Positions 1,797 to 59,708 of a stretch of DNA of 64,000 nt are shown in pieces. The stretch comes from Vairimorpha necatrix. Taxonomy: Eukaryota. How positions within the stretch are numbered: position 1 is the stretch's first letter; each line of letters begins with the position of its first letter. The DNA is taken from the NCBI GenBank assembly GCA_036630325.1, contig CP142728.1, positions 62,001-126,000 of the forward strand, in the 5' to 3' direction. A program made the translations under genes and the position numbers. Below the pieces are notes generated by a model, which was given only the letters and a program-made list of their open reading frames with translations, had not been told where the DNA came from and did not search any database.

Positions 1797-1935
1797 AAGT
1801 CACAATTTCTTCTGGCAGTTTCCGGAGTTCCTTCTAAAATCCTATATTGGGCTCTTGAATGCCCTTTCTAATCAGCCATGCTCATGTCTGATTGACATAG
1901 TATGACTTTTTTAAAGTCATTTAATCATTCTTGTT
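1797..1935 (-). mobile_element. Short 3' fragment of an RLE-type non-LTR retrotransposon
   Basis: Nucleotide similarity (CTGGCAGTT...ATTGGGCTCT...CATGTCTG.TGACATAGT) to the clearer LINE 3' fragments at 11400-11675 and 23990-24615; boundaries approximate. Confidence 0.6.
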
Positions 1936-29906: not shown

Positions 29907-31021
29907 GGATCTAGTTTGCTACGCGCTTGGAGCCAAACCTAGTTTGTTATAAGCCCGGAATGAAAAATAACAGCTTTTAAAGAGAAAAGAACTTTTATAG
30001 CATGATAATAAAAAAGCAACAATGTAAAAAGACAGGCTTCATTTAGAATTATTTTTATTTTAGCTTATGGCTAGTAAAGCTAGCATTTTAAAACGCAGTT
30101 CCTTAAACGTGCCTCTGAACACCAGTTCAGCTATAAGACTAGGAAGTTGCGCTTTTTAAACACCATACATTTTTTTTCGCCATAAGCTTCATCTTATTTA
30201 AGAATGACTCGATGTTCTAAGTATTTCCTCCAGTTATCGGATCAACGAAATTTGTCTTGTGGTTTATAACCAGATGACGGAACCCGAGCTCTCTTTCGAT
30301 ATTCGCATTTGATCTTCAGCCATCTGAGTGGATTATTGTGCCAGGTCTAATAACCTAGCAATGATCGGAAGTAAAACACCAGCTGATCGATTTGTTACAA
30401 TCTCCATATAGCACTTCGCAGGAGAGAAAGAGGTGTCTGCGATCCCCAAAACCCACACATCACTAGATGGTGCTCTGCCATGATGATATTTGATCTTGTG
30501 GACGAACTGGCTTTCGTCGATCTGGCAAATAATACCTGGACCTCCCAATCTCATAGGATCAGCCTTAAAGTATGCTTTAAGGATAGTCCTCAGCTTGTTT
30601 ATAACCGCCACGATGCTGTTTCTTCTGAATATATGTTCTAAAATAATCTCTTTAATCTGTTTTCCTTCGCTCCAAAGCATAATCATAGCGAAGATCTCTG
30701 ACAATAGCAATAAAAATCCCCCAAAGGATCCAGTTCTAATGCTCTTTGTGCTCCTGTAGAGCCTGCACACTTTTTTATCGCAAGTCCAGCAAATAAGGTC
30801 TGGGCCCTTCTTCGATTGCCCAATCATTCCAGATAAACACTCAGAACAGGACAACTGGTCTGAAAAGGGTTTGTTCTCGCAGAACATAAATCATCTTTAA
30901 AGGTGGCATTCTACGGATTTGTACGTAAATTTAAAACTGCGCAACAACCGAATTCATTGGGGTAACATTTTCTTAAAATAGTTTGTTATGCGCCCTATTG
31001 GTAGTATAACAAACTAGGTCC
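29907..31021 (-). mobile_element. Merlin (IS1595/ISXO2-like) DNA transposon with a frameshifted transposase
   Basis: TIRs GGATCTAGTTTGCTAC / GTATAACAAACTAGGTCC; LGGPGIICQIDESQF..KYHHGR..WVLG, then in other frames IIHSDG* and NHKTNFVDPITG; CCCCAATG start at 30957 is out of frame with the 30333-30887 ORF; candidate TSD is imperfect. Confidence 0.88.
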
Positions 31022-31558
31022 AGAATTTTTTAATTTAAAGAAAGTACAAATTTTTTCTAATAAATTGATGTTGAAAATTTTCATCACTTGTATAAACACA
31101 ATATAAAAATGAGTTTAAGAAATTTATGAGTTTTTTTTGTTTGCAATTCTCTAAATATTAAGATTTATGATTATAGTAATTTTTACTTCAACTATTAGTA
31201 TTGCGTTCTTATATTCTAAAAAAGAACTTAAATCTATTTTAACTTTAGATATAGTTTGTTTTAATTGTTTTTTAGTTTTATTCTATAATATTTGTTCGCA
31301 AATATTCCTTGATTGGTATTCTTAAATTGCTTTTACAATGATTTAATGCTTTAAATTTTTTAATTGTTCATATTCAATCATCTATTCTACTATATATATA
31401 AATACAATAAAAAACTAACTTATTTTTAATCCTCTCTTTTATGAATTAAAAGACTATAAAAAATGTAAATCGACTTAAAAGCGTTAAAAAACTCTTGCAT
31501 GTGTTTATAATGTATTTTATGGTTCGCTAATTAAATTCGTTTAAAGAATTTAATAATA

Positions 31559-31607
31559 TATAAGTGCTTAACATAATTGGGGTTTAATATTATTACTGAT
31601 TATAACA
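31559..31607 (-). repeat. 3' LTR (49 bp)
   Basis: Minus strand TGTTATAATCAGTAATAATATTAAACCCCAATTATGTTAAGCACTTATA, preceded by a polypurine tract at 31608-31617. Confidence 0.92.
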
Positions 31608-31623
31608 TCCCCCCTCCAGACGG

Positions 31624-34600
31624 TTAGTCTCCTTCAACATACTTTAAATCCCCTACACCCTTAAGATCATAATGCCTTTTTTTCACCAACCTTCCATTCT
31701 CTAATCTCACTATATATGAATCTCCTGGACATAGCTCAATCACTCTTCCCATGTCTAAAAATCGACCCTTACTATACTTACTACATCCCTTTAAATTCTC
31801 ATTCTTGGCAACCCTAACTATCTGGTTCCTTTTGAACTTTTCTCTAAACCAACTTTTAAACTGTTGCGCATACTTTCCCTCTGGACTATTCTCCATACTA
31901 ACATTTCCTGTATTATCGGTTAAAGCTTCTACTGGCGTGCACTTAATACCAGCATGAAAACTTAAATTATATTTCTCAATAGCTTCATAAACCTTGTTCT
32001 CGAATTTTTCTTTTTGGCTCTTTAAAATACTATCTCTTACAGTTCTAATAACTCTTTCTACTCTTCCATTACTTCTGTGCGACTCAACGCTGACCTTTCT
32101 ATGACTAATATCTAAATTTCTACATAGCTCGGTAACTTTTTCGTTGCAAAACTCTTTACCATTATCCGTAATGATTTCCTCTGGTTTTCTACCCTGTTTA
32201 CACAAATCCTTGATAAATTCGGCAATTCCAGATGCGTGCTTGCTCTTCAATACTCTGCCCCATAATCTCCTTGTAAAGTAATCAACTGCCAAAACAATAA
32301 ACGCTTTCTCATCCCTAAATTCTATTAAATCTAAGCCAACCTTCTCTAAATATCTTGTCGTGTTCACTAAATCAGTACCGCCACTCGTTTTTCTATTAAA
32401 AATCTGACAAGTCTCGCAATTCTTAAGGACCTTTTCGATCTGATCCTTAATTCCTGGCCAATAATACTGTTTCCTCAACTCATAATATACCGTTGTTCTG
32501 CTTCTGTGGCTCAAATTTACATGACAATCCATTATTAATCTCTCTCTGTCTTGTTCCAAAGGCATCTCGCCTTCTCTACCACTATCAAATACCCAGTATT
32601 CTTTACCTTCTACAATTTTTACATGCTTATTTCTTTTCCCTTCTTTTTGTCTATCACGGCGTGTTTCATTTCTCTTTTTCTTTGCATCTTTTTCTTTTGT
32701 ATATACCCTACTTAGCGCATCGGCTACGACCATATTTTCTGGAGTTCTATATTCTATCACGAAATCAAATTCCTGAATCTTCTCGACCCATCTATTAATT
32801 CTAGCATTCTTAAAGTCGGGCTTGTTTCTTATTTCGCCCAACGCTTTATGATCAGTTTCTATTCTAAATTTCCTACCTCTTAATTCATATTCAAACTTTT
32901 TAACGCCCCAAAAAACTGCGTACATTTCTTTTTCTGATATACCATAATTAACTTCCGTAACGGTAAACTTCTTAGACGCCCACTGTACTGGCACCCATTC
33001 TCCTTGATTATTTTTCTGTAACAGTACTGCGCCCATGCCTACATTACTAGCGTCAGTCCTCAACAAAAATTCTTTATCATAGTCTGCTATTTGCAGCTTT
33101 CCTAGGCCTTTCAATACTTCTTTTAAATTATTAAACTCGTTTTTCATATCATCCGTCCACTTCCAATTATCATTCTTCCCTTTTAAACTATCTGTCAACC
33201 TAACTGTCAATCCAGCGTAATTCTTAATAAAATCTCTGAACCAACCCGTCATTCCTAAAAATCTTCTTACATCTGACACGCATGTTGGTATCGGAAACTC
33301 TAGGGCTTCATTTTTCTTTATCTCTGACGGTATTATATCTTCTCCATTTAAAGTGACTCCCAATAATTTAACTTCCCGTTGACAAAACTGAACTTTATTT
33401 GCATTCAGCTTCAAATTGTTTTCCTTCAGTCTATTTAATACCCTTTTCACTAATTGCTCGTGTTCTCCTATCGTTCGGCTGTACAACACAATATCGTCCA
33501 TATACACCTCTACTCCTTTGCCTTTCATATCTCTAAAAATCCTATCCATAATTCTCTGCAATATCTGCGGGCTATTCTTATATCCCATAACCATAGAGTT
33601 CCATTCATAAACCTTGCCATTAAAATCAAACGCCGTCTTATGTTTATCCTCCTCCTCTATCTCAATACTATAGAAGGCCTCTTTTAAGTCGAAAACCGTC
33701 ATATATTTTGCACCTTGTGTAGCTCTTACAACATCTCTTATGTTAGACAATCTATACTCGTCCTTTTGTACAATATCGTTCAATGCCATCAAATTACTAA
33801 CCAGTCTTATCTCACCATTTGGCTTTCTGATTGACCTTATAGGATTCCTCCAACTTGAATTTGACTCTCTTATCACTTTCCTTTTTAATAAATCTTCTAG
33901 ATGTAGCTCTGTATCTTTTATCAACGCCTGCGGAACCATTTGTCCCTTTTTAAATACCTTCATACCCGCTTCAGTATTAATTTTACATTTTTCCAGTTTA
34001 CAATATTTTATCTCCTCTTTTCCTAACTTAAAAACCTCTCTAAAACTCTTAGCATACTTATCTAAATTTAATCTGATTCTCTTACTCTCCTCTTTAACGG
34101 CATATTCTTTTTGATTTTTCTCAAATTTGACTCTAAGTCCTCTTTTTGATCTTCTAAAATCTCGCTCCTGACTTGACTCTGATTCACTACCTACTTCCAT
34201 TTTGCAACTGTTATCCTTGTTATTCTTTTTATAATAATTATCTCTATTAATCTTCAGTCTGCATTCAAACACCCTATGCCCTTGTCTATCACAATAGAAG
34301 CATCTCGGTACTCTCGATTTTTGTCTTGGTTGTTCTCTACTAATTTCTTCATTTATAGACCTAGAAATAATTTTTCTCATTTCCTCATATATCTTTTCTT
34401 TTTCCTCTACTTCTTTAATCCTTAACAATAGCTTCTTCCTTATTCCTTCAATATTTTCTTCCTTTTTGATATTTCCCACAATAAAATCTTTTAAATCCAT
34501 CGAAGCCAACTTGAACAGCTCACTCTTCCATTTCACTCTATCTACATCTCTCAAATCCAATTCATACAATATACGCTCTAACTCCTGCAACATCTTTCTG

Positions 34601-34668
34601 ACCACTTGGCCACAGTCCTCTCTTGTGAACTCTTCTTTAGGTATCGCCCCCATATAAGTGCTTAACAT
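31624..34668 (-). CDS. Gag-Pol polyprotein: short Gag with CCHC knuckle, RT, RNase H, integrase (Ty3/Gypsy order)
   Basis: CFYCDRQGHRVFEC knuckle; FDLKEAF and YMDD (RT); TDASNVG, EKE, TDH, ADALSR (RNase H); HHCC zinc finger; integrase D..D35E (GLDL, TDNGKEF, NGRVE); uninterrupted 1014 aa. Confidence 0.97.
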   Translation of the reverse strand: MLSTYMGAIPKEEFTREDCGQVVRKMLQELERILYELDLRDVDRVKWKSELFKLASMDLKDFIVGNIKKEENIEGIRKKLLLRIKEVEEKEKIYEEMRKIISRSINEEISREQPRQKSRVPRCFYCDRQGHRVFECRLKINRDNYYKKNNKDNSCKMEVGSESESSQERDFRRSKRGLRVKFEKNQKEYAVKEESKRIRLNLDKYAKSFREVFKLGKEEIKYCKLEKCKINTEAGMKVFKKGQMVPQALIKDTELHLEDLLKRKVIRESNSSWRNPIRSIRKPNGEIRLVSNLMALNDIVQKDEYRLSNIRDVVRATQGAKYMTVFDLKEAFYSIEIEEEDKHKTAFDFNGKVYEWNSMVMGYKNSPQILQRIMDRIFRDMKGKGVEVYMDDIVLYSRTIGEHEQLVKRVLNRLKENNLKLNANKVQFCQREVKLLGVTLNGEDIIPSEIKKNEALEFPIPTCVSDVRRFLGMTGWFRDFIKNYAGLTVRLTDSLKGKNDNWKWTDDMKNEFNNLKEVLKGLGKLQIADYDKEFLLRTDASNVGMGAVLLQKNNQGEWVPVQWASKKFTVTEVNYGISEKEMYAVFWGVKKFEYELRGRKFRIETDHKALGEIRNKPDFKNARINRWVEKIQEFDFVIEYRTPENMVVADALSRVYTKEKDAKKKRNETRRDRQKEGKRNKHVKIVEGKEYWVFDSGREGEMPLEQDRERLIMDCHVNLSHRSRTTVYYELRKQYYWPGIKDQIEKVLKNCETCQIFNRKTSGGTDLVNTTRYLEKVGLDLIEFRDEKAFIVLAVDYFTRRLWGRVLKSKHASGIAEFIKDLCKQGRKPEEIITDNGKEFCNEKVTELCRNLDISHRKVSVESHRSNGRVERVIRTVRDSILKSQKEKFENKVYEAIEKYNLSFHAGIKCTPVEALTDNTGNVSMENSPEGKYAQQFKSWFREKFKRNQIVRVAKNENLKGCSKYSKGRFLDMGRVIELCPGDSYIVRLENGRLVKKRHYDLKGVGDLKYVEGD

Positions 34669-34701
34669 AATTGGGGTTTAATATTATTACTGATTATAAC
34701 A
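34653..34701 (-). repeat. 5' LTR (49 bp), containing a CCC motif and the ORF start codon
   Basis: Identical to 31559-31607; ATG at 34668 follows AAACCCCAATT. Confidence 0.92.
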
Positions 34702-34922
34702 TAATATAATAATATCTCCTTTAATCCTTCATTCAAAAATTGTAATTTTAAAAAGCAAAAACTTAGGTATCCACAATTTTAAAGCGTGAAATCTTTAGAT
34801 TTTTTGTTAGAAACGTCTATATATTATTAATTGTATTAAAAATTTTTCTGGTTATAAATTTTTCTAATTTATAAATCTTCTAATATATAATAGAATATAA
34901 GAAAATTATTTAAAATAAAGTT

Positions 34923-36452
34923 TTATTTTGTTCTGATATATGACCAATCATCGTCCAGTTCAAAAATTTCTTCTTCTTTCGTCTTTGTAACAATCTTTCT
35001 TTTGCAAATTTTCATGTACACAATAAAAAATACAATAATACCCAACATAACCAAAAATCCCGAAATCTTAACAAAGTGATTTTCGATAAACGAAATATTT
35101 GCCTGTTGAGTTTTATTATAGCTACTATTTGGTGTGATAGTACTTAAGTTTCTATCAATAACAGTATCATTTATAGTATTGGTCAAAACACTAGTATTAA
35201 AAGTCTCATTTAATTTTGTTGTACCAAAATTAATGCTTGACTCTGTAGTAAAAAAAATTTTTTTGAAAGTAGTCGTTTTTATATCATTAGACACTGAAGA
35301 AATATTAGAAATGTCTTCTACAGTATTTGTAATAGAATAATAATTTAAAGTCGACGTCTGTGTATTGTTTCTAAAAATAATTGTATTATTATTGTCAAAT
35401 GATGTATTATATATCGGATTAACAATAAAAGTACTTGTATTGGCATCATTAATAACAGAATTAGTTTCTAAAGTAGTAAATGGGCCAGTGTTATCATAAT
35501 TTTTAGTAGATGTTGAAGTTTCCAATTCATTACTTAAATAAGTACCATTAAAAAAACTTTGTATAGTAGTATTTGAAACATCATTTGACAACATGTTGTT
35601 AAATTGAGTAGTATTTTTATCATAATTAACAGTGGTATAGACGTTAATTTCATATTCAGTAGTATCATTATTATTATTAACAGAAGCAATATTCGATTTA
35701 TTATTAAAATCAGTAATATTGAAAGCATCACAAAGGTCCATAAAAGTAGTTTTATTTGTAAATTTAAAATGCTTAAAATCATAATTACTATCAATGCAAT
35801 CAGATTTGCTTATATGATTTTTATTTTCCTCTGCAAAATCAACAATCCTTTGTTTGAACTCTTCGTTTAAACATCTATTATAATAAGATAAAAACCCAAT
35901 GCACCACTTTTCATAAATATAAAGTCTATTATCTATACTATTAGTTTCAATACAAATCCCCTTATCAATTATCTCCCTCATGATCTGTAATAGAGAATCT
36001 GAATTATCGAGTTTGTCTTTGTGGCATAAACGAAATGAGTAGAAAATTTCAGAAGTTTTACGAACAACTATGTCCAAAAAATCATTTTCTGACTCACTTA
36101 TCTTATTATAAATTATGTAATCTTCTGAAGATCCATTTAAGTAATAAATTAATTTCTTCAAATAATATTTTTTATAAATCTCGTTTCTTTCATTAAATTT
36201 TGATAATGAATAGTACTTTTTAAGTTTACTAACAAAAAACACATTTCTAGTTAACGCTTCCCATACAAAGATCCCAAATTCCTTGATGATAGTTAAGGAA
36301 TAATTTTTGCCTGTTTTACTGTTTATTTTCAGATAGCATTCATTAGTATCGTAATTAAGAATTTCTCTTATTACGGCTGTATCGTGGATACTTGTTTTTA
36401 TTTTAACAATGAAAAATACTAACAAATTAAAATAATAGACTGGTGAATTCAT
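34923..36452 (-). CDS. Type I membrane protein with an N/T/S-rich mucin-like stalk
   Basis: CCCCAG(A)nATG start at 36452 (track ORF starts 36560); signal-like YYFNLLVFFIV; T/S/N-rich stalk; TM ISGFLVMLGIIVFFIVYM; acidic cytoplasmic tail. Confidence 0.85.
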   Translation of the reverse strand: MNSPVYYFNLLVFFIVKIKTSIHDTAVIREILNYDTNECYLKINSKTGKNYSLTIIKEFGIFVWEALTRNVFFVSKLKKYYSLSKFNERNEIYKKYYLKKLIYYLNGSSEDYIIYNKISESENDFLDIVVRKTSEIFYSFRLCHKDKLDNSDSLLQIMREIIDKGICIETNSIDNRLYIYEKWCIGFLSYYNRCLNEEFKQRIVDFAEENKNHISKSDCIDSNYDFKHFKFTNKTTFMDLCDAFNITDFNNKSNIASVNNNNDTTEYEINVYTTVNYDKNTTQFNNMLSNDVSNTTIQSFFNGTYLSNELETSTSTKNYDNTGPFTTLETNSVINDANTSTFIVNPIYNTSFDNNNTIIFRNNTQTSTLNYYSITNTVEDISNISSVSNDIKTTTFKKIFFTTESSINFGTTKLNETFNTSVLTNTINDTVIDRNLSTITPNSSYNKTQQANISFIENHFVKISGFLVMLGIIVFFIVYMKICKRKIVTKTKEEEIFELDDDWSYIRTK

Positions 36453-38849: not shown

Positions 38850-41350
38850 ACAAGTATAAAGCTGTTCTTTGCTTTAAAATCTCGTTTCGATTACTACAAA
38901 TAATCTATCTTTTCTTTTTTACGCAAATATCACAAGTTTCGCTACATCATAATCACAATATCCACGTTATTTTGTAAGACAAAAATCCCACTCTCTATAA
39001 TGTAATCTTTACACTTGCAAAGTCTTGAAAACATTAGATGTCTAAAATCATATAAATTTAATTTTGTCATTTGAAAGGTCTTTTTCAAAATAAAAATATT
39101 AAAATTTTGTTTTTTATGTTTTGCAGCACCTATTTTTGAAACCATATAGCAGAGAAGCACCCATTCTGTCAAAGATCTTCGTTAATTTCTTGATCGTTGA
39201 CACAAAATTTTAACCTTCTGTTTCATCTTTTTTTTATTGACACGTTACATAATTCGAGGTTTCTTAGATGTTTTTGTTACCTGGTCCTTCATATATTGTT
39301 AGTATCATTTTTACTAAATGTTAAATGTTTTCCTTTGATACTGCGGTGCTAAATTATTTCTGATCTGTATATTACAACTCGTCTTGGTTGTTTATGAAAG
39401 ATTTCTTTTTTTTTCTTGATCTAAGAATTATCATATTCTAATTTTTATGAACAGTGTGTTTAGTCTCTATTGCTTTTATTTGATATTAAATCTTTTTTAC
39501 TATTTTTTTCTTTTTCGATCCCTTTATGTATTTAAATTATCTGCTAAAACGATTACATTAATAATTATTTTCCTTTGTTATTCGATTGTAAAGCCAAATT
39601 CTTGTATGAATTTTTTCATGATAATAAATGATATTTGTAAAAGGGGCTGTTCCTAATTTCAGATAGTGCTTTAAGTTCTATCGTTATTGTTAGAAGAAAC
39701 CTTATACTACGTTTATCGGTCTCGATTTTTTTTATCAAAATAAACTAGCGTCTAAATTACACTATTTGTGTACCCTTTTCTGTTGGTACAAGCATATTTG
39801 ATGGTCATTGTAAGTATACACTTTCCTTCGTGTCTTCTTGCCATATATAGCTCTAATCCCTGTATCACATGCGTCTGTTCTTGGTCTTAATATTTTCTTG
39901 CTATCTACAATTTTTTTGTTGTTTTCTCTTCTTTTTCCCCACTTGCTATCTAAAAATGTACTTTCACTATCTTCGAACCATATTCAATTTACATCACTTT
40001 TTAGTGTTTTGTAGATCGTGCTGTCTTGAATGGGTAATTATGATAAAATTCTAACCAAATCTATCTGCCTCAAAGTTTTTGCAGGTTCTCTTGCGTCATT
40101 CTGACTTTTCCTTATGTTTCAAAATTTTATTTAATTAAATACTCTATCCAAAAATTAACTCCCAATAGTTTAAATTTTTCTTATTTGAATTGTGCTTTTT
40201 TGTGTTTATTTTCAGTCCACTTTCTATAAATTTTTGAACTAATTAATAAAAAATACCTTCTATATTGCAATCTTGAGCATTTATCCTAAAACATCAATGT
40301 AAACATCAACATAGTTGCTTCTTAGATTTTATTTTGTCTCCTAACGATCTTTGCGTAATCTAATATGAGTTTTTATCATATTTTTATGCTTTCCCCTCCA
40401 CATACACTGATTTTTACCGAAAAGGCAGTCTTATGTTTATGACGCTGCTCAATTTTTACATGAGAGAAGCCTTTCATTCAATATAAAACTGTAAATAGTT
40501 TAACTTTTAAGGCAATAATAATGTGCTGTTTCTAGTCATTCATATGAAAGTTTTTAAACTTATTTATACAAGCACATTATATTGCAAACTAATCTTATTT
40601 TCCTAGATGGTTTTTTTAAAGCTATTATGATACATTTCAACTTGCCCTTTGAATTTCTGTATCGCCCCGTAGTTTTAATAGTCTTAAACGCTCGTCTAAT
40701 TTTTTCGTGTATTAATAAAGAATTTTGTCCGCTCTTTACAACTTCATACTTAATTGTTATTTTTAAACATTTTTCTTCCGTCAAGCATTTTATTTTTTCT
40801 TGCTCTTTTCTTATATCTCTAAATACTTTCCTTTTAATACAAAAGTATAATTTTTATGTTTTTTCTAATATTTAGTGTTGTTAGACATAAACAGTATTAC
40901 AATTACCAAAATTCTAAAGAATTTTGTCATCATTGTTCTATTGTTTTTTTATTTACACAAATCCAACCTTTGATGATATCTCCAATTCAGACCCATCAAA
41001 GCAACATTTCTCTTCTTTTGTTTCGGAAATTTCTTTCTGTACTCATACTCTTCCAAACAATATTCCTTAAATTTCATTTATTTCATTTTATTTTATCAAT
41101 CCAATGTCCGTTTTAATTTTTTCTTACATCTCTTCATTTTGTCAACAACAACCAACTTCCCAATTTCATCAGTTATTATTCCAAGTTTTAAAATAGACAA
41201 TATATTTTTCTATTATCAGATACTGTATTATAATGCTCGCTTGTTTTAAAACCTGCTTTTACATTACTCTTCTTACATTATCATCATGCTCCATTATTCG
41301 GCCATTTTATATAAATTCCAGGCTCACTTCTTATACCAATTTCTTTTATG
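38850..41350 (-). mobile_element. Old degenerate Ty3/Gypsy relic related to the intact element
   Basis: Fragments KKPSRKIRLVCNIMCL (vs RKPNGEIRLVSNLMAL), VDVYID (vs VEVYMDD), KLLGV, KALSEIRNSPF (vs KALGEIRNKPDF) and IQEFGFTIE (vs IQEFDFVIE) occur in colinear order; boundaries approximate. Confidence 0.8.
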
Positions 41351-49678: not shown

Positions 49679-51595
49679 AAGAAAAAAATAAATCACACAA
49701 TAAATAGAAAATATTATGCAAATTTCAAGGGTATTTTAATTATTATCTAAATTTAGATAGGATTTTGAGAAACATCACAATTTTTTTTACTATTTTTAAG
49801 ACACAGGGCTGCAAGTTACAACCAGGTAAAAAAATAAGTTTAAAATATCAGGAAAATCGCCATTAAAATTAAAGTAAACGTGATTTAGGTATTAAAAATA
49901 TAATTTTATTTGGGGAATGAGAATACATTAAAAAACTAGAAGTTTTTATTTAAACCCGGGCAAATATTAAAATAGATCATAAATTTTTTAATAACGTATA
50001 TCCCATTGTATAAAAATTTTCTTAGTTAGCAATTTATTTACTATATGTTTTCTTAATATAAAAACTCTGTTTTTCAAGTAAAGATGATTACATCTATATG
50101 GTTTCATACCTAAAATTATGAATTAAAGTTCAAGTGTGATAGTTAAAAAATACGCAATACATAATACATTACAAAATATTGTTTACTATCACTTACACAT
50201 AGTGATATCAAATCGAATATTAGGTTATTTAGTTTATGGTTGTAAAAGCATTATTCAAAGAACTTATTAAGACAATGAAAAATAGCAAACAATCTGTCAA
50301 CAAACAATATTAAAAATCGTGCATTCGATTGAGACACATATAATTATAAAATTTAAATAAAAACAACTACATACTAATTTAAACAAATGTGAAAATAATC
50401 TATAATTTTTAAAATAGAACTTAAAATTGCATTCTGCACGTCGTAGAGAAAGATAAATTATCTACGGTCGCTGATAACATAAAATATTTATTTAAATATG
50501 AATAAGCGGAATCAATATATTGAAGAATGAAGCAAAGATTATTTTAGATTATTTTAAAACAATTAAAATCAAAATAGATTATGCCTTAACCACATACTCA
50601 CACAAAATGGCTTTCAAAAAATTACCATTTGTGAAAAATAAATATATTGAAACAAATATTATATGATATACAAGTCTATATTAATTGAACATTCTCTTTA
50701 ATGGTTCTAGAGCTTTTATAATGTTAAAAAAGTTAAACATATAAAATACTAATTTAAAATTCACAAAATTCAATTTTTAGTTGTATATTAAATTATTGTT
50801 AAGTTAAATGATTTTGTAAATCATATAATAGAAAATCTGCCTTTTTACTAATTTCAATCAAATACTGAATTTTAATTACTAAACAAAAACAAATTTTACA
50901 TTCAGTTAATACTATATTCATGAGTATTAAAATTGGTCATCGGCTTCGTGGAAATTTTTATCTTGTCAGTTTTTTTTTGTATTGCACAGGAAAACATTTT
51001 CAATACTATCGAGAGGTGTATCAAATTTATATTGAAACTTGCTCTACTTCATATAAGAGCTTTGGTGTGACAGGTATAATGAGAGATTATGAAAACGATT
51101 GACTTTTGACATAACTTGTCACTAACTTATTTTAAAAAATTACTGTGAACACTGCTTTTCAGATGTCATATATCTTGAACGTGTCATGTGCAACTATATT
51201 AACAAAAACATTTCAAAGCGGACGAAAAAAGATTAAAACAAAAAAATGACTTAAAAAGAACGATAACAATAATTACTAAAAAAAAATACTATGTCGGAGG
51301 AAGATTGCTGCCTTACAATTTGTATTTATTATTGTGGATATAATTAATTATTCAATCTATTTAATTAATTTGCGAAGGTTGATTGTTTAATTAAAAAACA
51401 AACTGTCTGAGATATTTGAAGTGGTTAAGGTTTTTAAACAAAACTTTCACTAAAAATTTTGTCTTTAGTAAGGTGAAAAAAAAAATAATTTACAAAATAT
51501 ACAACTTTCAAAAATTTGAAATATGATTGTTTTATTCACTTTTTGATAAATTAAGTCTGTTTGGTATATATATATTATTTTCTAAACACAACCCC

Positions 51596-52342
51596 ATGAA
51601 GTTAATATTTAATTGGTCTTTTTTTCTTTTAAATATAATCTATTTAAATATTTTTCTATTTTTTCTAATGCACAGATTTTTACTTTTTAAATCAAAGGAT
51701 CCCGTAGATATACCCGTTTATGATAATTATGATGGAATCGATATTTTTTTAAAAGATGCTAATTCTGACAGAGATATTATATTTTGTCATGGGTCTAAAT
51801 TATCAGGAAAAGTTTATAATATTCTTTTAAACGATATGTCTAGACACACTAAATGTAATGTCATCAGTTTTAATTTAAAAGGTATGTTGAATTCCAGAGG
51901 TATATCCTCGGAAAAGGGAATAAGGAAAGAAGTTGATAGTTTTATTTCTTGTTATTTACAAAAAAGAAATAAAAAAGTAATCGTGTTTGGTCAATCTCTA
52001 GGATGTTGTTTGGCAATTCAAATTGGCCGTAAGTTAGGCATCAATAAGGTCATTTTAGAAAATCCATTTATAAATTATAAATCTTTAATTAAGTCGTTAT
52101 ATAAATATGACTTTGTTTCTTATTTTGTAGTAGATAAATGGTGCAATAATAAAATCTCCGAATTAAAGAGTGCACTTTTTCTAATTAGTGATAATGATAC
52201 TTTAATTAAAAACGAGGATGGTAAACATTTGCAAAGTTTAACAAACAATAGTAAAATCGCTTTTTTAAATGGAAGTAACCATTTCAACGCCAATAGAAAT
52301 AGACATTTTTATCAACATATCATAAATTACATTAATAATTAA
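51596..52342 (+). CDS. Alpha/beta hydrolase (Bem46/ABHD13-like) with an N-terminal membrane anchor
   Basis: CCCCATG start; FCHG oxyanion motif, GQSLG nucleophile elbow, ILENPF, candidate catalytic Asp (SDND) and His (SNH). Confidence 0.85.
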   Translation: MKLIFNWSFFLLNIIYLNIFLFFLMHRFLLFKSKDPVDIPVYDNYDGIDIFLKDANSDRDIIFCHGSKLSGKVYNILLNDMSRHTKCNVISFNLKGMLNSRGISSEKGIRKEVDSFISCYLQKRNKKVIVFGQSLGCCLAIQIGRKLGINKVILENPFINYKSLIKSLYKYDFVSYFVVDKWCNNKISELKSALFLISDNDTLIKNEDGKHLQSLTNNSKIAFLNGSNHFNANRNRHFYQHIINYINN

Positions 52343-52435
52343 ATTTTATATTTATAAAAATTTTACTATGTTTAATGTTATGACGTCAAATTTTATTAAA
52401 CAATACAATGTTAAGAAAATTAAAAATGCAAATTT

Positions 52436-52792
52436 TTAATCCGGCACAACTTTCGCTTTACAGTATAACTTATAAAGAATCAAAGGGTTAAGTTCTACTT
52501 TGACGATTCTTTTACTATGTCTTTCTTCATCCAGTACTGCTATTTTTTCACTTTGTCTCTCATTTTGAAACCAGACATTTATTGTTTTAAGTTTTAGATT
52601 TAACATTATACTTAAATCTATTTTGGTCTGAGAAGAAGGATACGCTGTTAGTTTGAACACTTCTTTTAATGTACGACATTGTATTTTTGATTTCTTATTT
52701 CTATTAATGCTTAATCCTTCTGTTCCATTTTTTAATAAACACAATCCCAAAGCTGCCTGAACTTTTTTTTCTTTCCTGATAATGTTTTTCAT
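52436..52792 (-). CDS. Homeodomain protein (microsporidian HD type)
   Basis: LKEVFKLTAYPSSQTKIDLSIMLNLKLKTINVWFQNERQ; GGGGTTATG start at 52792; paralog of 4348-4749. Confidence 0.88.
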   Translation of the reverse strand: MKNIIRKEKKVQAALGLCLLKNGTEGLSINRNKKSKIQCRTLKEVFKLTAYPSSQTKIDLSIMLNLKLKTINVWFQNERQSEKIAVLDEERHSKRIVKVELNPLILYKLYCKAKVVPD

Positions 52793-53106
52793 AACCCCAA
52801 TTGACAAAATTATGTTTTTTATAGTATCTTAAATTAATTATAAAATTTGATATCATGACGAATCATTAGATAAACAAAATATTAAAAAAATACGACGAAA
52901 ATGAAACGTGTCAAAAAAGATACAAACTAATAAGTTTTTCAAATTTTCGACTTTTATAATGAAAATTAGATAAATCATTTATTACGATATTTCTAATATT
53001 TTTATTAATTTTTGACATTAATGATTCCATGAGAATTGATATAAATGACAGTGAAAAAATAAAAGAAGTTTTATTTACAGTTTAAGATTATTTTGAAGAA
53101 TTAATT

Positions 53107-53790
53107 TTAATTTTCTATACATCTGGCAAGTATAGCATTAAAAGACTTATTTTCTGCACAAAGCCATATTCTTATCTTGAACAATTTGAACAAATCTTTT
53201 AACAAATCTCTGAAATCAATTCTTCTAGAACTCTTAAAATAAAAAGTTATTTTTTTCTTGTCCCACTGATATTCACAACTTAGAATATCCATTGTTATGT
53301 TACTTAAGAAAACAAGTTCTTTACATTTTTCTAAACTATTTATCTCATCAATTTCTCTTCTTTTTAATTCTTGTACGTCTAAATCAGTAGCGTATCTCAA
53401 TATTCTTTTACTTTCTATGTCACTAGTTGCTTCTTTGAAAGTTTCAAATATCATACTTAATTTACATTCTGATGCTATACTTAAAACTTTTCCACAGTCT
53501 TCTCCTCTGTCTGCTTCTAATATTACATATGAATCTTTTGTATAACACATATAATCAAAGCCTATGTCTAATCTGCCACTTTTATATTCTATAATGTGAT
53601 AAGTCACCTTAGTGACCAAAAAAGTTTCGGTCATAAAACTTTTCATTATATTTATTAATTTATCACTTTTTATTTCTACTTCTTTAGATTTTTCAGTAAA
53701 CTGTTCACCTATAGCTTTACATTTAATTCTTTTATCATTCCAAGTATCTTCATTTTCCATCCAAACTGTGTTGTTGGCATACAATTTCAT
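53107..53790 (-). CDS. PSP1 C-terminal domain protein (PSP1/YaaT family)
   Basis: VILEADRGEDCGKV and EYQWDKKKITFYF..RRIDFRDLLKDLFKLFKIRIW signature motifs. Confidence 0.9.
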   Translation of the reverse strand: MKLYANNTVWMENEDTWNDKRIKCKAIGEQFTEKSKEVEIKSDKLINIMKSFMTETFLVTKVTYHIIEYKSGRLDIGFDYMCYTKDSYVILEADRGEDCGKVLSIASECKLSMIFETFKEATSDIESKRILRYATDLDVQELKRREIDEINSLEKCKELVFLSNITMDILSCEYQWDKKKITFYFKSSRRIDFRDLLKDLFKLFKIRIWLCAENKSFNAILARCIEN

Positions 53791-54520
53791 ATGTGTATTC
53801 TAATATTTTTTTTTTATACGCATTTTGAATCGTGTTTTATTTCAAATCAATAGATTTGTAACCTTAAAAATATTATTGACTCAAAAAAAACAAAGAACAT
53901 CTGTTTTATACTGTACAAATTAACAAAATGTTGAATTTATAAATATTTAAGTGTTAGTTTTATATTTATAATTTTTTTACACTTTGTTTATAAATGTTTT
54001 AAATTACTTTACATATAAAAAATATTTTTTATTTTGGTTATGTCATAGTTTCGGGATCTCACTTTGAAATTTATAATAATTATATATGAATTTTACAATT
54101 TTTTATAAAATGAATCTGATGGATTGCTTTTAAAATATTTAATAGAATAAACCAAACAATAATTTTTTTTTCAATATCAAAATTTAATTACAGAATTAAT
54201 AAATAATTTGTATATATTAAATAAATGTTCCAATAAATTTATAATTGGTACATTTACAATGATTTATCAGATTTTGAGAGGTTTTACGCATTTAAGAAAA
54301 TGTTCCTATTAATGAATTTTTTATAAATATGGGAAATTAATTAATTATAAGGTAGAAATTATTTAATAAAAAATTTGTGGAATGTATTTTTATCAAAAAA
54401 TACCAAATAATTTATATCCAAAATATTAATATACCAATTAATTAAATCTACAGGTTATAATAATCATTTATATGTTATTGGCATCTTAAAGTATTTATAG
54501 TTTTTTTGTACAGGCATATT

Positions 54521-54925
54521 ATGAACTCAGATATATTGTTTCACCTACTACCCAGACTCTCCGGAAAGTCCCTTAGATTTTTATATACACAAGACTCAAA
54601 GGTATTAAATGAAACAAACCGTTTACAATTAATTCATTTCTATAAAAACAAGCTAAACATAATGAGCTGTAAGAAATTATTATCTTTCTTATATTTCTGT
54701 GAGCAAAGTGGTTGTAGAGATATAGTATATGAATGTTTAGAATGTTTACCAGAATATAAAAAAGTAAACTTATATTTTTACTGGATAAAACATAATAAAA
54801 CTACATTTAAACTTAATTATTATTTTAATGAAGATTTAATAAAGAACAAGATCAGAAAGAGCAATGTCAAATTAAATACAAATACAAGATTAGAATTTGT
54901 AATGTACAATTTAAAAATTCAATAA
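54521..54925 (+). CDS. Hypothetical protein
   Basis: 134 aa from the first ATG, in the gene-dense block; no recognised motif. Confidence 0.55.
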   Translation: MNSDILFHLLPRLSGKSLRFLYTQDSKVLNETNRLQLIHFYKNKLNIMSCKKLLSFLYFCEQSGCRDIVYECLECLPEYKKVNLYFYWIKHNKTTFKLNYYFNEDLIKNKIRKSNVKLNTNTRLEFVMYNLKIQ

Positions 54926-54942
54926 CAAGTAATTAAAAATTA

Positions 54943-55838
54943 GGAGCTTTCCCACTTTAGTCCCCCCCTTACATATATAAATACAAATTTTCAAAAAATA
55001 TCCCTGATTTTTGAAAATCGAAACGGACAGAACGGGAAGGAGAAAAATCCAAAAAAAATTAAATTTAATAAAACAACATAATAACCAAAAATAAACAGAT
55101 TATTTTTTTTATTTTTTCAATTTCCTTAATATTTCATTATAGTTCTGACTTGATCAAATCCTCTACTTATTATACATAAATTTGTATAATAAAAAGATAT
55201 ATTATTGAATATGTATAATAAATAATAACATAACTATGTTATAATGTAATAATAAAAAATCAATAAGAAAATTTTTTCTATATTAATAAATTAAATTAAT
55301 CTTATAGCAGTTTATCTTTAAAATTCATAATTTTAATCTTATAGCAGTTTATCTTTAAAATTCATAATTTTAATCTTATATAATATATATGAATGATTAA
55401 AAATACATAAATATGAAAATTTTCCTCTTCATTTGTTTATAAAAAACAATCAATTACCTAAAATACTAATATTTTATATAAATACTTAAAATAATAAGAA
55501 CCAAACCTAAAATCTGTATTAAACATCATAAATGGAAGAAAAACATAAGTTTCAACACGGAAATATGATAATAATGACAGAAGAAAATAATTTTCTTTTT
55601 ATGTAATTAGACATCTATTTAATCATAATTTTGATAAAATAATTATAATAACTGTTTTATTATTATGTTTTACATGTAATATGGTCAAAATAGAACTTAT
55701 TATAACTATTATATACTACTTTATAAATTTTATATTTTCTCCCTTCCGTTCTGTCCGCTTCGAATTTCAAAAATCAGGGATATTTTTTGAAAATTTGTAT
55801 TTATATGTGTAAGGGGGGGACTAAAGTGGTTTTTGGCC
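54943..55838. mobile_element. MITE, 896 bp, about 105-bp TIRs, perfect 8-bp TSD (Merlin-like)
   Basis: AAAAATTA at 54935-54942 and 55839-55846; GG...CC termini; arms CCACTTTAGTCCCCCCCTTACA / TGTAAGGGGGGGACTAAAGTGG. Confidence 0.92.
55296..55380. repeat. 37-bp tandem repeat (about 2.3 copies) inside the MITE
   Basis: TTAATCTTATAGCAGTTTATCTTTAAAATTCATAATT twice, plus a partial copy. Confidence 0.9.
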
Positions 55839-55910
55839 AAAAATTATTTATTTTTGAAAAAAAAATGAGATTTGTAATTTATATTGAAATGAGAATTAAT
55901 GCTTGATTTT

Positions 55911-56107
55911 TTTGTATTATCATTGTAAATAATAAATAAAATTAGATTTTGTAGTTTAAAATTTAACGTAAATAAAACGCAAAAAAAAAGAAAATTTATT
56001 TGTATTATCATTGTAAATAATAAATAAAATTAGATTTTGAAGTTTAAAATTTAACGTAAATAAGACGCAAAAATAAGAATGATTTTTTTTATTATCATTG
56101 TAAATAA
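55911..56107. repeat. About 88-bp tandem repeat (about 2.2 copies) upstream of the eIF2B gene
   Basis: TTTGTATTATCATTGTAAATAATAAATAAAATTAGATTTTG at 55911 and 55999, partial copy near 56090. Confidence 0.85.
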
Positions 56108-56277
56108 CCAAGAAAAATAAGGGAATAATTTTTAAGTTCAAATACCGTTATTTTTATATTAAAAATAAAGACTATCTTAAAAATTTATACAATTTGTTGA
56201 TTTTCACTGAATTCTCTAATTTTGAATTGACCACATTTTTTTCCGTTATTTTTTTAAAACTTTATTTTATTGCCCCA

Positions 56278-57372
56278 ATGTTTGATTCTGTTATTTTAAT
56301 TGGACCCGGTACAAATTTGTTTCCTCTTATAAACTCGTCTCTAAATATTACAAATATCCCTATAATTAACACTGAACTTCTTCTTATAAATCTTAGATTT
56401 CTTCAACCTATCAGTAGAAAAATTTATATAATAATATTACAGAAGAATATAAACCACATAACACAAATACTAAATCTAATAAAAGTTCCTGTAGAAGTTA
56501 TAGGCATAGATTATTATGATGGAACAGTTCAACAACTTCTTAATTTAGAGAAGAAATTGAAATCTGATAATATAATAGTCACGAAAGGGGATTTAGTCAC
56601 CAATATAGACGTAGTAACTTTAGGCAATGAGTTTAAAGAAAAAAAGTATTCGTTTTTGACGATTCTTTCTCCTGGGGATACTGGGGCAATTTGCGGTTAT
56701 TCAAAAGACGAATTAATTTATTATAGTCGTAACGACAAATATAAAATACCAAATGAAATATTTATAAATTATAGGGTTACGATTAGTAAAGTCCATGACA
56801 CTGCCCATTTTTTCATGTTTAAAAAAAGTCTTTTGGAATTTGCCACTCCAGAAATGTTTAGTTTTAAAACTAACTTTTTACCAATTTTGGTCGAGAAGCT
56901 TCGTCAATGTACGCCTGTTAAAATTTATGATCCTATGGATAATTATATGTTTCAAGTAAGAGATATTTCATCATATATTACTATTAGTAAGTTTCTTAAG
57001 ATTAAAACTTTTACTTCTAATGATAATTTAATATATTCTAAAGGCATGTTTGATGTCATGAAAGTTTATATTAAAAAAAATAAATTGAAAGATACTAAAA
57101 ATATTATAGGAACTGATTTATTTCTAGAAAGTGGATTTATAGTGAACAGTATAATAGGAAATAATGTCTTGATACACAGTAATACCCGGATTTTGTCATC
57201 TATCCTAATGAATAATATTATTATAGGGAATAATTGTGTTATAGAAGATTGTGTAGTAGGGAGTAATGTAAATATTCCTGACAATACCACGCTGATAAAA
57301 TGTAAAATATCGCCTTCTTTTGTTTTTACTAATAATGTGACGGCGGAAGGCAACACGTTCAGCTGTAACTGA
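56278..57372 (+). CDS. GCD1: Translation initiation factor eIF2B gamma-like subunit (NTP-transferase-like domain plus left-handed beta-helix)
   Basis: CCCCAATG start; SVILIGPGTNLFPL..PIIN N-terminus; GDLVTN; C-terminal hexapeptide repeats (SIIGNNVLI, IIIGNNCVIEDCVVG); no C-terminal W2 domain, favouring gamma over epsilon. Confidence 0.75.
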   Translation: MFDSVILIGPGTNLFPLINSSLNITNIPIINTELLLINLRFLQPISRKIYIIILQKNINHITQILNLIKVPVEVIGIDYYDGTVQQLLNLEKKLKSDNIIVTKGDLVTNIDVVTLGNEFKEKKYSFLTILSPGDTGAICGYSKDELIYYSRNDKYKIPNEIFINYRVTISKVHDTAHFFMFKKSLLEFATPEMFSFKTNFLPILVEKLRQCTPVKIYDPMDNYMFQVRDISSYITISKFLKIKTFTSNDNLIYSKGMFDVMKVYIKKNKLKDTKNIIGTDLFLESGFIVNSIIGNNVLIHSNTRILSSILMNNIIIGNNCVIEDCVVGSNVNIPDNTTLIKCKISPSFVFTNNVTAEGNTFSCN

Positions 57373-57497
57373 CAAAATTAAAATTTTTATTTTGAGCTTA
57401 GGAGAAGGTGTCATAATGCTTTGGCGTATAATTAGCAAGAGAACTTGAAAAAAGATACACGCAATAGAATAAATAACATTCAATAGTTTTGATTTAA

Positions 57498-57998
57498 TTA
57501 ATATTTATTATATAATTCATCGTTTTTTATGTGCAAAATTTCTATTGCTTCGCCAGTAGTATTTTGTTTAAATTCTCTTTTATCTAATAAAGCTTGTCCC
57601 ACTGCTAATATCCCCATATTAATTATTTTGATACAGACAATATCATTTTTTTTAAAATCTTCTATGCACTGATCAATGTATTTGAATACACCAGGCGCCA
57701 TGACATTGGCTCCTCTTTCTAAAGGACCAATAGCTCCACTGTCTAAATAGACAGTAGGCAAATTTAAAAGATTTTGTTCTAATGTTTTTATAGTAGGAAT
57801 ATATTTATTATTAAAAAAAAACATTATCGCTTTATTGCCGTCCAATATTAAATTAGATCTGTTTTTAAGTTTAGCTATTTGATATTCTTCTTGTTTTTTT
57901 AGTAATTCTGTGTTACATATTTTATTTATAGATTTCTTGTCTTTTTTACTAATTTGAGAAGTCGAGATTATTTCAATTTTACAGAATAGAGATTTCAT
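57498..57998 (-). CDS. TMA20: PUA-domain translation reinitiation factor TMA20/MCTS1
   Basis: YIPTIK, LPTVYLDSGAI..GANVMAPG, GEAIEILH..DEL motifs; CCCCGCTATG start. Confidence 0.88.
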   Translation of the reverse strand: MKSLFCKIEIISTSQISKKDKKSINKICNTELLKKQEEYQIAKLKNRSNLILDGNKAIMFFFNNKYIPTIKTLEQNLLNLPTVYLDSGAIGPLERGANVMAPGVFKYIDQCIEDFKKNDIVCIKIINMGILAVGQALLDKREFKQNTTGEAIEILHIKNDELYNKY

Positions 57999-58435
57999 AG
58001 CGGGGTAAAAAATTTTTATACGTTTGGGAAATATAATGAATTAATTATATTTTATAAAAACCATCTTATTGAGTAAATAGCAAAATTTATAACTACAATT
58101 GCTTATAATTTGCTCAAAATAGTTTCAGTTGGAGAATTGAATATAGAACTTATAAAAGCACAGATAATATCAAGTAATCCTTACTTATCTTATGAGTTAA
58201 ACAAGTTTGGATATTTTTTAAAAATTTGCCTTAAGTTTTTATAATGCCACATTTAATTAAGTAATATTAAAAATACACTCTAAACATGAATTTATTAGTC
58301 TAACAAATGTGATCTAAACGAATCAATGAAACACTGAATTTTATTGGCACATTGTCTGATTTTTAGTTTTAATTTGTTTAAAGTCTAACAAACTGATTTC
58401 AAAATATATTAACAAGTGAAAAAAAAAGTTCTTGT

Positions 58436-59674
58436 ATGAAGAATCACTATAAAGCAATTTTTTTCTTTGCTTTTCTAATTACAATGTTAATTCTGATATA
58501 CGAGGGATTGTCTTTACTAATATTTTCCACAGACCTAAAAAATGGCGAATACGGCATACCGAAAGATTCTTACACCTTTAAAGTAGCAGAAGCTACAAAA
58601 ATTTATCATACTAGTATGATGCTGGCAGTATCTTCAAGATTTAAAATTTTAAAAGAAAAAATATTGTTGACTTTAATTTACACAGCACTAGCTTGCTGCA
58701 TCCTTTTAGATTTACCAAGAAAATATATTTACAAATTTAGTAGAAATACTATAAATTGTTACACTTGCACGTATCTTAATGTTGATCATGTGCAAGTAGC
58801 CTTTACAAATATTTTTGTATTTTTATTTAGTACGCTTTATTTGTCAGAATATATAGAAACATATCTGGGAATAAGTCGTTATAACTGGATCAACACGATA
58901 TTAATATACTTCATGTTATATTTTTTAGTGTGCCCGTGTGTAGTCTTTTGTATTTTTCTATTATTTCGTATGTTTGGCGGCCAATTAATTCTCGCGTTGT
59001 ACATTTCTTTCATAGCTAAAAATCTTTATGAAATCTTTATAGAAGACGATTTATCTCCAACATTGAGACAATTATCAGCCGAAAGTTTTTCAGAGCCAGT
59101 TGAAAAATCTTTATTAGATACAAAATTAGGAGATAAAGTTTTTTTGGATGTCGACAATTCAAAAGAAACTAATGCAGCACTTGTTGGACTAGAAAATCAA
59201 GCAAGAATTGAAATATATGGAAAATTTAGAGATTTACCAGAAAAACAACAAGATTCAGTGCTTTTACATGAAATAGGACATTCAATAGATCACAGTCTCT
59301 TAAAAAAGTTAAGTGTATATTTTTTTATTTATGGTTTAGAACTTTTAACAATGCTTTTTTTATATAACAAAGGTCCAAAAATTTTTGAATCTGAAGATCT
59401 TTCCAAGACAACGTGTTTCATTTTATTGTTCATTATCTATGAGATTTCTATGAAGGAATTAATAATGGCATTTTACAAATTGTCTTCGCAGCGCGCAGAA
59501 ACTGCAGCAGATATGTGGGCCAAAAGAGCAGGATTCGGCGAAGAATTATCCAAGTCATTATTATACATTTCGATTCAAGAAGCGTCTTATATACGACCCA
59601 CATATTTATATAATGCAATATATGCTATGCACCCGTCTATCTTCTCTAGAGTAGAATTATTAAATAAAAAATAA
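58436..59674 (+). CDS. STE24: CAAX prenyl protease / peptidase M48
   Basis: Multiple TM helices, NAALVG, HEIGH zinc motif, E..AD, HP....R C-terminus. Confidence 0.88.
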   Translation: MKNHYKAIFFFAFLITMLILIYEGLSLLIFSTDLKNGEYGIPKDSYTFKVAEATKIYHTSMMLAVSSRFKILKEKILLTLIYTALACCILLDLPRKYIYKFSRNTINCYTCTYLNVDHVQVAFTNIFVFLFSTLYLSEYIETYLGISRYNWINTILIYFMLYFLVCPCVVFCIFLLFRMFGGQLILALYISFIAKNLYEIFIEDDLSPTLRQLSAESFSEPVEKSLLDTKLGDKVFLDVDNSKETNAALVGLENQARIEIYGKFRDLPEKQQDSVLLHEIGHSIDHSLLKKLSVYFFIYGLELLTMLFLYNKGPKIFESEDLSKTTCFILLFIIYEISMKELIMAFYKLSSQRAETAADMWAKRAGFGEELSKSLLYISIQEASYIRPTYLYNAIYAMHPSIFSRVELLNKK

Positions 59675-59708
59675 ATTTATTGAAAATTTTGTATGTTTTT
59701 TTTAACCC

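Follow-up and report, generated by a model that had tools for sequence, protein, structure and literature searches.

The window analysed here, a 64 000-nucleotide stretch of Vairimorpha necatrix contig CP142728.1 (GenBank assembly GCA_036630325.1, positions 62 001–126 000 of the forward strand), carries a long terminal repeat (LTR) retrotransposon on its minus strand at positions 31559–34701, which measures 3143 bp between the outer LTR ends. An earlier note, made from the sequence alone, had described a complete Ty3/Gypsy element bounded by two identical 49-bp direct repeats, with TAATA on both outer sides, a polypurine tract (PPT) against one repeat, a TGG-starting sequence resembling a primer-binding site (PBS) against the other and an unbroken open reading frame (ORF) of 1014 residues filling about 97% of its length. 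All of these landmarks were recovered at the positions given in Table 1, the ORF accounting for 3045 of the 3143 bp (96.9%). A search of the window with the 49-nt LTR gave exactly two copies, both on the minus strand and without mismatch, and two matches were obtained in none of 100 shuffles of the window. A general direct-repeat search of the window returned a single family of 51 nt at 100% identity (31558–31608 and 34652–34702, spacing 3094); the exact repeat is 51 nt rather than 49 nt because one TAATA base on each side extends it by chance. Neither a second copy of the element nor a solo LTR was found within the window. The element has a G+C content of 33–36%, compared with ∼20–29% in the rest of the window. 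The first ATG of the ORF (34666–34668) sits within the 5′ LTR. No other ORF of at least 60 residues is present on the sense strand of the element, and the six on the antisense strand (63–124 residues) look incidental.

Table 1. Features of the retrotransposon, in window coordinates (aa, residues of the polyprotein; pLDDT, predicted local distance difference test score)
Feature	Position	Strand	Basis
Target-site duplication TAATA, 3′ side of element	31554..31558	.	Sequence reading; single TAATA in the empty-site contig
3′ LTR, 49 bp, TGTTATAA...CTTATA on the element strand	31559..31607	-	Repeat search; contig branch points 31558/31559 and 31607/31608
Polypurine tract GGAGGGGGGA, flush with the 3′ LTR	31608..31617	-	Sequence reading; GGGGATGTT invariant in 4/4 aligned elements
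Conserved box GAGACTAACCGTCT, directly 5′ of the PPT, holding the TAA stop (31624–31626)	31618..31631	-	3′-end alignment
PBS-like site TGGGGGCGATACC, flush with the 5′ LTR, translated as M-G-A-I-P	34640..34652	-	Sequence reading; family N-termini M-G or M-A at the junction
Junction start codon (A, last LTR base; TG, first two PBS bases)	34651..34653	-	Sequence and family alignment; same layout in L003 and Aalg retro L
5′ LTR, 49 bp (TATAAT 34693–34698, ATTAAA 34677–34682, CCCC 34673–34676, ATG 34666–34668)	34653..34701	-	
Target-site duplication TAATA, 5′ side of element	34702..34706	.	Sequence reading and empty-site contig
Single polyprotein ORF, 1014 aa (Gag, reverse transcriptase, RNase H, integrase; no protease)	31624..34668	-	ORF list, Pfam, family alignment
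Gag helical domain, aa 18–112	34333..34617	-	Four helices, pLDDT ∼90; fold searches without specific match
CCHC zinc knuckle, aa 123–136	34261..34302	-	C123, C126, H131 and C136 invariant in 21/21; zf-CCHC E 0.014; matches retroviral nucleocapsids
Linker, poorly conserved and predicted disordered, aa 141–199; protease position in relatives	34072..34248	-	pLDDT <50
Reverse transcriptase, aa 280–440, YMDD 389–392	33349..33831	-	Pfam RVT_1 E 8.5e-37
RNase H, aa 504–634	32767..33159	-	Pfam RT_RNaseH E 2.8e-32, RT_RNaseH_2 E 2.3e-27
Integrase H2C2 zinc domain, aa 706–759	32392..32553	-	Integrase_H2C2 E 3.7e-14; H716, H721, C751 and C754 invariant
Integrase catalytic core, aa 779–857	32098..32334	-	rve E 6.3e-10; D780, D835 and E871 invariant

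Pfam places the domains of the polyprotein in the order reverse transcriptase (RT), RNase H and integrase that characterizes Ty3/gypsy elements, and these follow a Gag with the nucleocapsid zinc knuckle expected of that group. When the window protein was aligned with 20 homologues, the CCHC knuckle, the YxDD motif, the acidic residues of RNase H, the HHCC residues of integrase and its D,D,E triad all proved invariant, so the window copy looks enzymatically intact. Like Ty3 of Saccharomyces and the Metaviridae, the element combines this domain order and a CCHC knuckle with a 5-bp duplication and a PBS and PPT that lie flush with the repeats, and like Tf1 of Schizosaccharomyces it has one Gag-Pol ORF. 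Canonical Ty3/gypsy elements are about 5 kb or more in length, with LTRs of hundreds of base pairs, a two-domain capsid and an aspartic protease; Tf1 likewise encodes a protease and is self-primed by its 5′ end.

The Gag part is small. AlphaFold, modelling the full-length protein with a mean pLDDT of 75.9, places four helices at residues 21–111, then the knuckle and the beginning of RT near residue 200, and a separate model of residues 1–148 (pLDDT 83.3) has the same four helices. Foldseek gave no match to the Gag model at E ≤ 0.001, the Arc C-lobe appearing only at rank 28 with E 3.1, and a Foldseek-independent search (VIA wide) gave generic helical bundles only, with Z ≤ 6.5. A profile of the Gag family matched HIV-1 (human immunodeficiency virus type 1) Gag (5o2u_A) with E 5e-11, a score that derives largely from the knuckle. 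In this profile, residues 51–152 (34213–34518, minus strand) align with HIV-1 Gag 304–410, a segment comprising the capsid C-terminal domain, SP1 and nucleocapsid, and the family motif AS..L..FI falls on the EQASQEVKNWM helix of HIV-1 Gag. That this mini-Gag could be a remnant of a capsid C-terminal domain plus nucleocapsid is a lead only, for which the fold searches gave no confirmation.

A retropepsin-type aspartic protease, which in Ty3/gypsy elements lies between Gag and RT, is missing. Pfam found no protease in the whole polyprotein, and when residues 1–279 were searched alone with E values up to 10 it returned zf-CCHC only and no protease; the linker at residues 141–199 contains no D[ST]G motif and gave no Pfam match, and the AlphaFold model predicts no β-rich domain at the retropepsin position. 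The same holds for the family, since an hhD[ST]G[AS] motif before RT is present in 0 of the best 40 proteins among 99 matches, and the distance from knuckle to RT is 94–178 residues in the 34 of these 40 that have both a CCHC and the RT motif SxWxxP. Two relatives from Nematocida, of about 1300 residues, do have the motif and show knuckle-to-RT distances of 261 and 271 residues, about 130 residues more than in the compact clade. On the homology of RT, RNase H and integrase, and on the tree described below, the element is placed in the gypsy lineage as a protease-less derivative and not as a canonical member. The word complete in the earlier description therefore has to be qualified by the missing protease, which Pfam, motif searches and AlphaFold alike failed to reveal.

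Contigs from public sequencing runs were aligned to positions 30900–35400 of the window. Two runs, X1 and X2, cover most of the stretch (word shares 0.75 and 0.62), and two more, X3 and X4, contributed only two short contigs each. In X1 the word depth of the element contigs is 34–37 versus 2.8–4.9 for contigs of the flanks, depth not being equivalent to copy number, and relative to the window copy the X1 contigs carry differences at 4 of 1322 and 11 of 1801 positions. Inside the LTRs, at 31580 and 34672, the long contigs come to an end, as expected for a 49-bp repeat that occurs in two contexts. From 31558, 31607, 34701, 34708 and 34711 loose ends enter at least four other flanks, one of them common to X1 and X2, so that further insertions share these exact termini, which answers the question raised in the earlier note of whether other copies stop at the same 49-bp repeats.

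That note had also suggested looking for an empty-site allele, and one was found in X1. A contig of 188 nt (record 7; depth 4.78, flank-like) aligns over 122 nt with 34701–34822, with three letters differing, after 66 loose nucleotides, and the 30 loose nucleotides that are shown match the left flank (31522–31553) at 27 of 31 positions, as judged by eye. Joined, the contig reads as flank, one TAATA and flank, the predicted empty site, which proves the boundaries and the 5-bp duplication. Since multi-copy contigs break at the same ends and the empty site exists, the 49-bp LTR is taken to be native and the insertion recent. Both had been claimed before; the first is supported by contigs of two independent runs that leave the LTR at these ends, by the empty site and by the 39-bp LTRs of a relative described below (L003).

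A protein search with the polyprotein yielded 99 matches, the best 40 of which are 557–1188 residues long and 36–72% identical. Named sources among these 40 are Nosema granulosis, V. necatrix and Enteropsectra breve; others come from metagenomes, and one match lies on a contig of a metagenome-assembled genome (MAG) labelled 'Clostridium', which is read as contamination. Contigs of 2991–3288 bp, i.e. of one element length, carry 19 of the 40. A tree of 57 RT–RNase H segments was built with FastTree and midpoint-rooted, leaving out proteins of fewer than 850 residues and those without a YxDD motif at least 100 residues from the N-terminus and followed by at least 350 residues. In this tree 30 compact rows, including that of the window, form one branch with support 100, the protease-bearing Nematocida pair is its sister with support 99, and protease-bearing elements of animals and other sources fall outside the group that these two make up. 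If the root lies outside that group, as midpoint rooting alone places it, a single loss of the protease would have occurred in the ancestor of the compact clade, which is old and diverse.

A scan of metagenomes with the single window protein found nothing, and a scan with the family alignment found four loci, one of them complete. The complete locus, L003, is 3163 bp long and encodes a protein ∼50% identical to that of the window; it has 39-bp TG..CA LTRs that differ by one mismatch and lie 3124 bp apart, a TTATA target-site duplication, and a PBS (TGGCACCCAGTC) and PPT (AAGGCGGGGA) that are both flush with the LTRs. Contig ends truncate L001 and L002, and L004 is decayed at its 5′ side. A scan of a genome collection gave four further loci, spread over two bacterial MAGs that carry the labels Clostridium and Turicibacter (L005 and L006 in G001, L007 and L008 in G002) and probably reflecting contamination of low-GC bins by microsporidian DNA; none of the four has both LTRs, and L007 lacks any ORF of at least 150 residues. 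In a collection of viral contigs no relative of the element was found. L004 and L005 keep their 3′ ends only, where a G-rich tract is followed by LTR-like sequences of 49 and 38 nt in the same layout. When the 3′ ends of the window element, L003, L004 and L005 were aligned, a box GACT..CCGTCT and the tract GGGGATGTT proved invariant in all four, whereas the adjacent coding sequence diverges; a polypurine tract next to the 3′ LTR, typical of Ty3/gypsy elements, is likewise kept in four of four. The box is retained although the elements are only ∼50% identical in protein, and some relatives translate it, their C-termini reading ...RLEGGML. It might form a 4-bp hairpin, AGAC/GUCU, and shows no covariation.

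The closest counterpart in the literature is Aalg retro L of Anncaliia algerae, which Table S1 of Parisot et al. (2014; PMC4202319) lists with an LTR of 50 bp, an ORF at 32–3049 and a total of 3127 bp. The same table contains three other complete families with LTRs shorter than 100 bp (45, 73 and 90 bp), and the remaining complete Anncaliia families have LTRs of 105–272 bp, most of them being 3.6–4.3 kb long. The main text of that study states that there is a single polyprotein and does not appear to comment on LTR length or protease loss, the word 'protease' occurring 0 times in it. Aalg retro L was compared through this table and the first 300 nt of its consensus. It resembles the window element in total length (3127 versus 3143 bp), LTR length (50 versus 49 bp) and single ORF (∼1005–1014 residues), in that the ORF starts inside the 5′ LTR (at position 32 in Aalg retro L), and in the layout of the LTR, which in both begins with TGTTATA and continues with an A/T-rich tract, CCC, ATG and a second ATG at the LTR/TGG junction. 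It differs in its genus, in its primer site (TGGCG... compared with TGGGGGCG... in the window) and in the end of the LTR (CA compared with TA). The combination of a length of ∼3.1 kb, LTRs of ∼40–50 bp, an ORF of ∼1000 residues that begins in the LTR and a junction start codon is found in both the window element and L003. More broadly, the window element is like the microsporidian single-polyprotein Ty3/gypsy groups in having a fused Gag-Pol and the order RT–RNase H–integrase, and these groups are specific to microsporidia (PMC4202319).

The compact design is therefore not new as a kind, having been tabulated in 2014 without discussion in the text. Of the suggestion in the earlier note that this is a candidate minimal retroelement family, the multi-copy compact clade stands, and the novelty is qualified by Aalg retro L. 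Our literature search found nothing relevant on short-LTR microsporidian retrotransposons, on the shortest LTRs or on the smallest autonomous or protease-less LTR elements. The Nbr elements of Nosema bombycis, said to have been described by Xu and coworkers in 2006, are reportedly single-polyprotein Ty3/gypsy elements too. The Bombyx element mag reportedly has an LTR of 77 bp, on which the literature search gave nothing relevant.

When the LTR is numbered 1–49 on the element strand, TATAAT occupies positions 4–9, ATTAAA 20–25, CCCC 26–29 and ATG 34–36, and the junction ATG takes its A from base 49. In its sequence the LTR resembles a host gene start, with a TATA-like element at −30 and CCC at −8 to −5. 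In Nosema ceranae, CCC is reported to be over-represented between −10 and −3 from start codons, with a TATA peak near −27 (Cornman, 2009). In the window, CCC occurs no more than 10 nt before the ATG in seven of the 17 other ORFs of at least 150 residues, two of which share the CCCcaa context of the LTR; the gene starts with an upstream CCC lie at 8189, 47735, 51596, 56278, 57998, 59709 and 63442.

These features suggest a scheme in which each 49-bp LTR would serve as a host-style mini-promoter plus terminator. Transcription would start just downstream of ATTAAA, leaving a repeat (R) region of ∼10–20 nt for the first strand transfer, and ATTAAA would be read as a poly(A) signal in the 3′ LTR only, because it lies upstream of the likely transcription start. 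Minus-strand synthesis would be primed at the TGG site directly after the LTR, probably by the 3′ end of a transfer RNA (tRNA), and plus-strand synthesis at the purine tract directly before the 3′ LTR; the integrase would cut AT-rich DNA with a stagger of 5 bp. The PBS would itself be translated, a conserved start codon being assembled from the last LTR base and the TG of TGG, and the polyprotein probably works unprocessed, or else might be cut by a host enzyme or by the protease of another element. Across the aligned family, the conserved junction methionine is followed by G or A, as TGG requires, and about half of the members have an in-frame LTR ATG a few codons upstream. At least four types of primer site follow the TGG (in the window, the family alignment, Aalg retro L and L003), so that different tRNAs are probably used across the family. 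A tRNA with the pattern GGCGATA..TATCGCCC was found in neither of the two MAG genomes, both of which are read as contaminated. Self-priming of the Tf1 type was considered and rejected, as the complementarity of the LTR to the primer site amounts to only 5 nt (CCCCA) by eye.

Taking the evidence together, we conclude with considerable confidence that the locus is a young copy of a multi-copy LTR retrotransposon that derives from Ty3/gypsy and belongs to an ultra-compact lineage specific to microsporidia. A more far-reaching proposal, which we regard as possible and put forward tentatively, is that the clade as a whole could represent a minimal autonomous LTR retroelement with no protease of its own, a one-domain Gag, LTRs of 38–50 bp that would each hold a complete host-type promoter and terminator, an R region of ∼10–20 nt, a start codon formed by the U5 (unique 5′)/PBS junction and N-terminal residues set by the primer tRNA. 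If this were true, proteolytic maturation and a two-domain capsid would be dispensable for LTR retrotransposition.

Several points weigh against one or the other of these interpretations. The LTR termini are TG...TA and not the canonical TG...CA, and one-base shifts of the boundaries, which fit the TAATA duplication equally well, yield no CA. The left flank of the empty-site contig is ∼87% identical over the 31 nt shown, so that its source is another, diverged allele or strain, a paralogous site being conceivable too. The tree is the product of FastTree and midpoint rooting only, and a complete LTR pair is present in only one of the four metagenome loci and in none of the four genome-collection loci, the rest being cut by contig ends or decayed. 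The transcription start, the poly(A) site and the length of R are read from sequence features only. The window PBS begins with TGGGGGC, as tRNA-Pro primer sites do, and tRNA-Pro is suspected to be the primer; no tRNA gene occurs in the window with which the putative primer could be compared. Autonomy without a protease is put forward as a candidate property only.

The strongest competitor of the autonomous reading, which we consider less probable but still substantial, is that the element is real and non-autonomous, being mobilized in trans by the protease and/or capsid of other retrotransposons, as occurs in plants. The lack of a protease by any test is what would be expected, as is a Gag of ∼110 helical residues and one knuckle without a recognizable two-domain capsid, and Anncaliia has many gypsy families of 3.6–4.3 kb beside the 3.1-kb one in the table cited above. 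However, the clade without a protease is an old one and varied, identities falling as low as 42%, and it keeps intact ORFs, a constant length and invariant catalytic residues, and no protease-bearing helper was seen among the named Nosema and Vairimorpha matches, the motif being absent from the best 40 of the 99. It is quite improbable that the window copy has ceased to be mobile and persists as a dead relic or as a domesticated gene. In favour of this, an extra A after 31617, between the PPT and the conserved box, is missing from the window copy and present in most copies (63.7 of 98.2 depth in X1, 8150 of 8627 in X2), and the window copy might be impaired as a result, which also counts against its being a fully active young copy; yet its LTRs are identical, its 1014-residue ORF is intact with all catalytic residues present, it differs by less than 0.5% from the multi-copy contigs and its insertion site is polymorphic. 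That the 49-bp repeats are an artefact of collapsed or truncated longer LTRs or of misassembly is hardly credible, for although LTRs below 100 bp lie outside the usual stated range of 100 bp to more than 5 kb (Hermant & Torres-Padilla, 2021), contigs of two other public runs share these branch points, the empty-site contig exists, the PBS and PPT directly adjoin the repeats and relatives have LTRs of 39 and 50 bp.

The element shows how little an LTR retrotransposon needs, with 3.1 kb, 97% of it coding, and no protease, and its 49-bp repeats appear to double as promoter, terminator and gene start. Beyond confirming a design already on record, the present analysis contributes an empty-site allele for the window copy and family-wide evidence of protease loss. 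Standard programs that search for LTRs commonly have a minimum LTR length of ∼100 bp and would miss the family, so that repeats in microsporidian genomes may be more abundant, and more recently active, than estimated. Its small size further recommends the element as a minimal experimental model for the study of LTR retrotransposition.

The surroundings of the element fit a microsporidian of the Nosema/Vairimorpha type. Positions 1–50000 of the window are gene-poor, with orphan ORFs that have no Pfam match, and positions 51000–64000 are dense with conserved housekeeping genes; those at the right end are compact and intron-less and encode a proteasome alpha subunit, an eIF2B-epsilon-like protein, a PUA protein, an M48 peptidase and symplekin. 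Beside the element, a 184-residue ORF (30333–30887, minus strand) has a Cys-rich N-terminus and a sub-threshold Pfam match to zf-CRD only; by eye it may resemble a fragment of a Merlin/IS1595-type transposase. A weak, decayed RT remnant lies at 40418–40658 on the minus strand, where two tblastn pieces are 38–41% identical to residues 267–348 of the polyprotein (E 2.7e-4).

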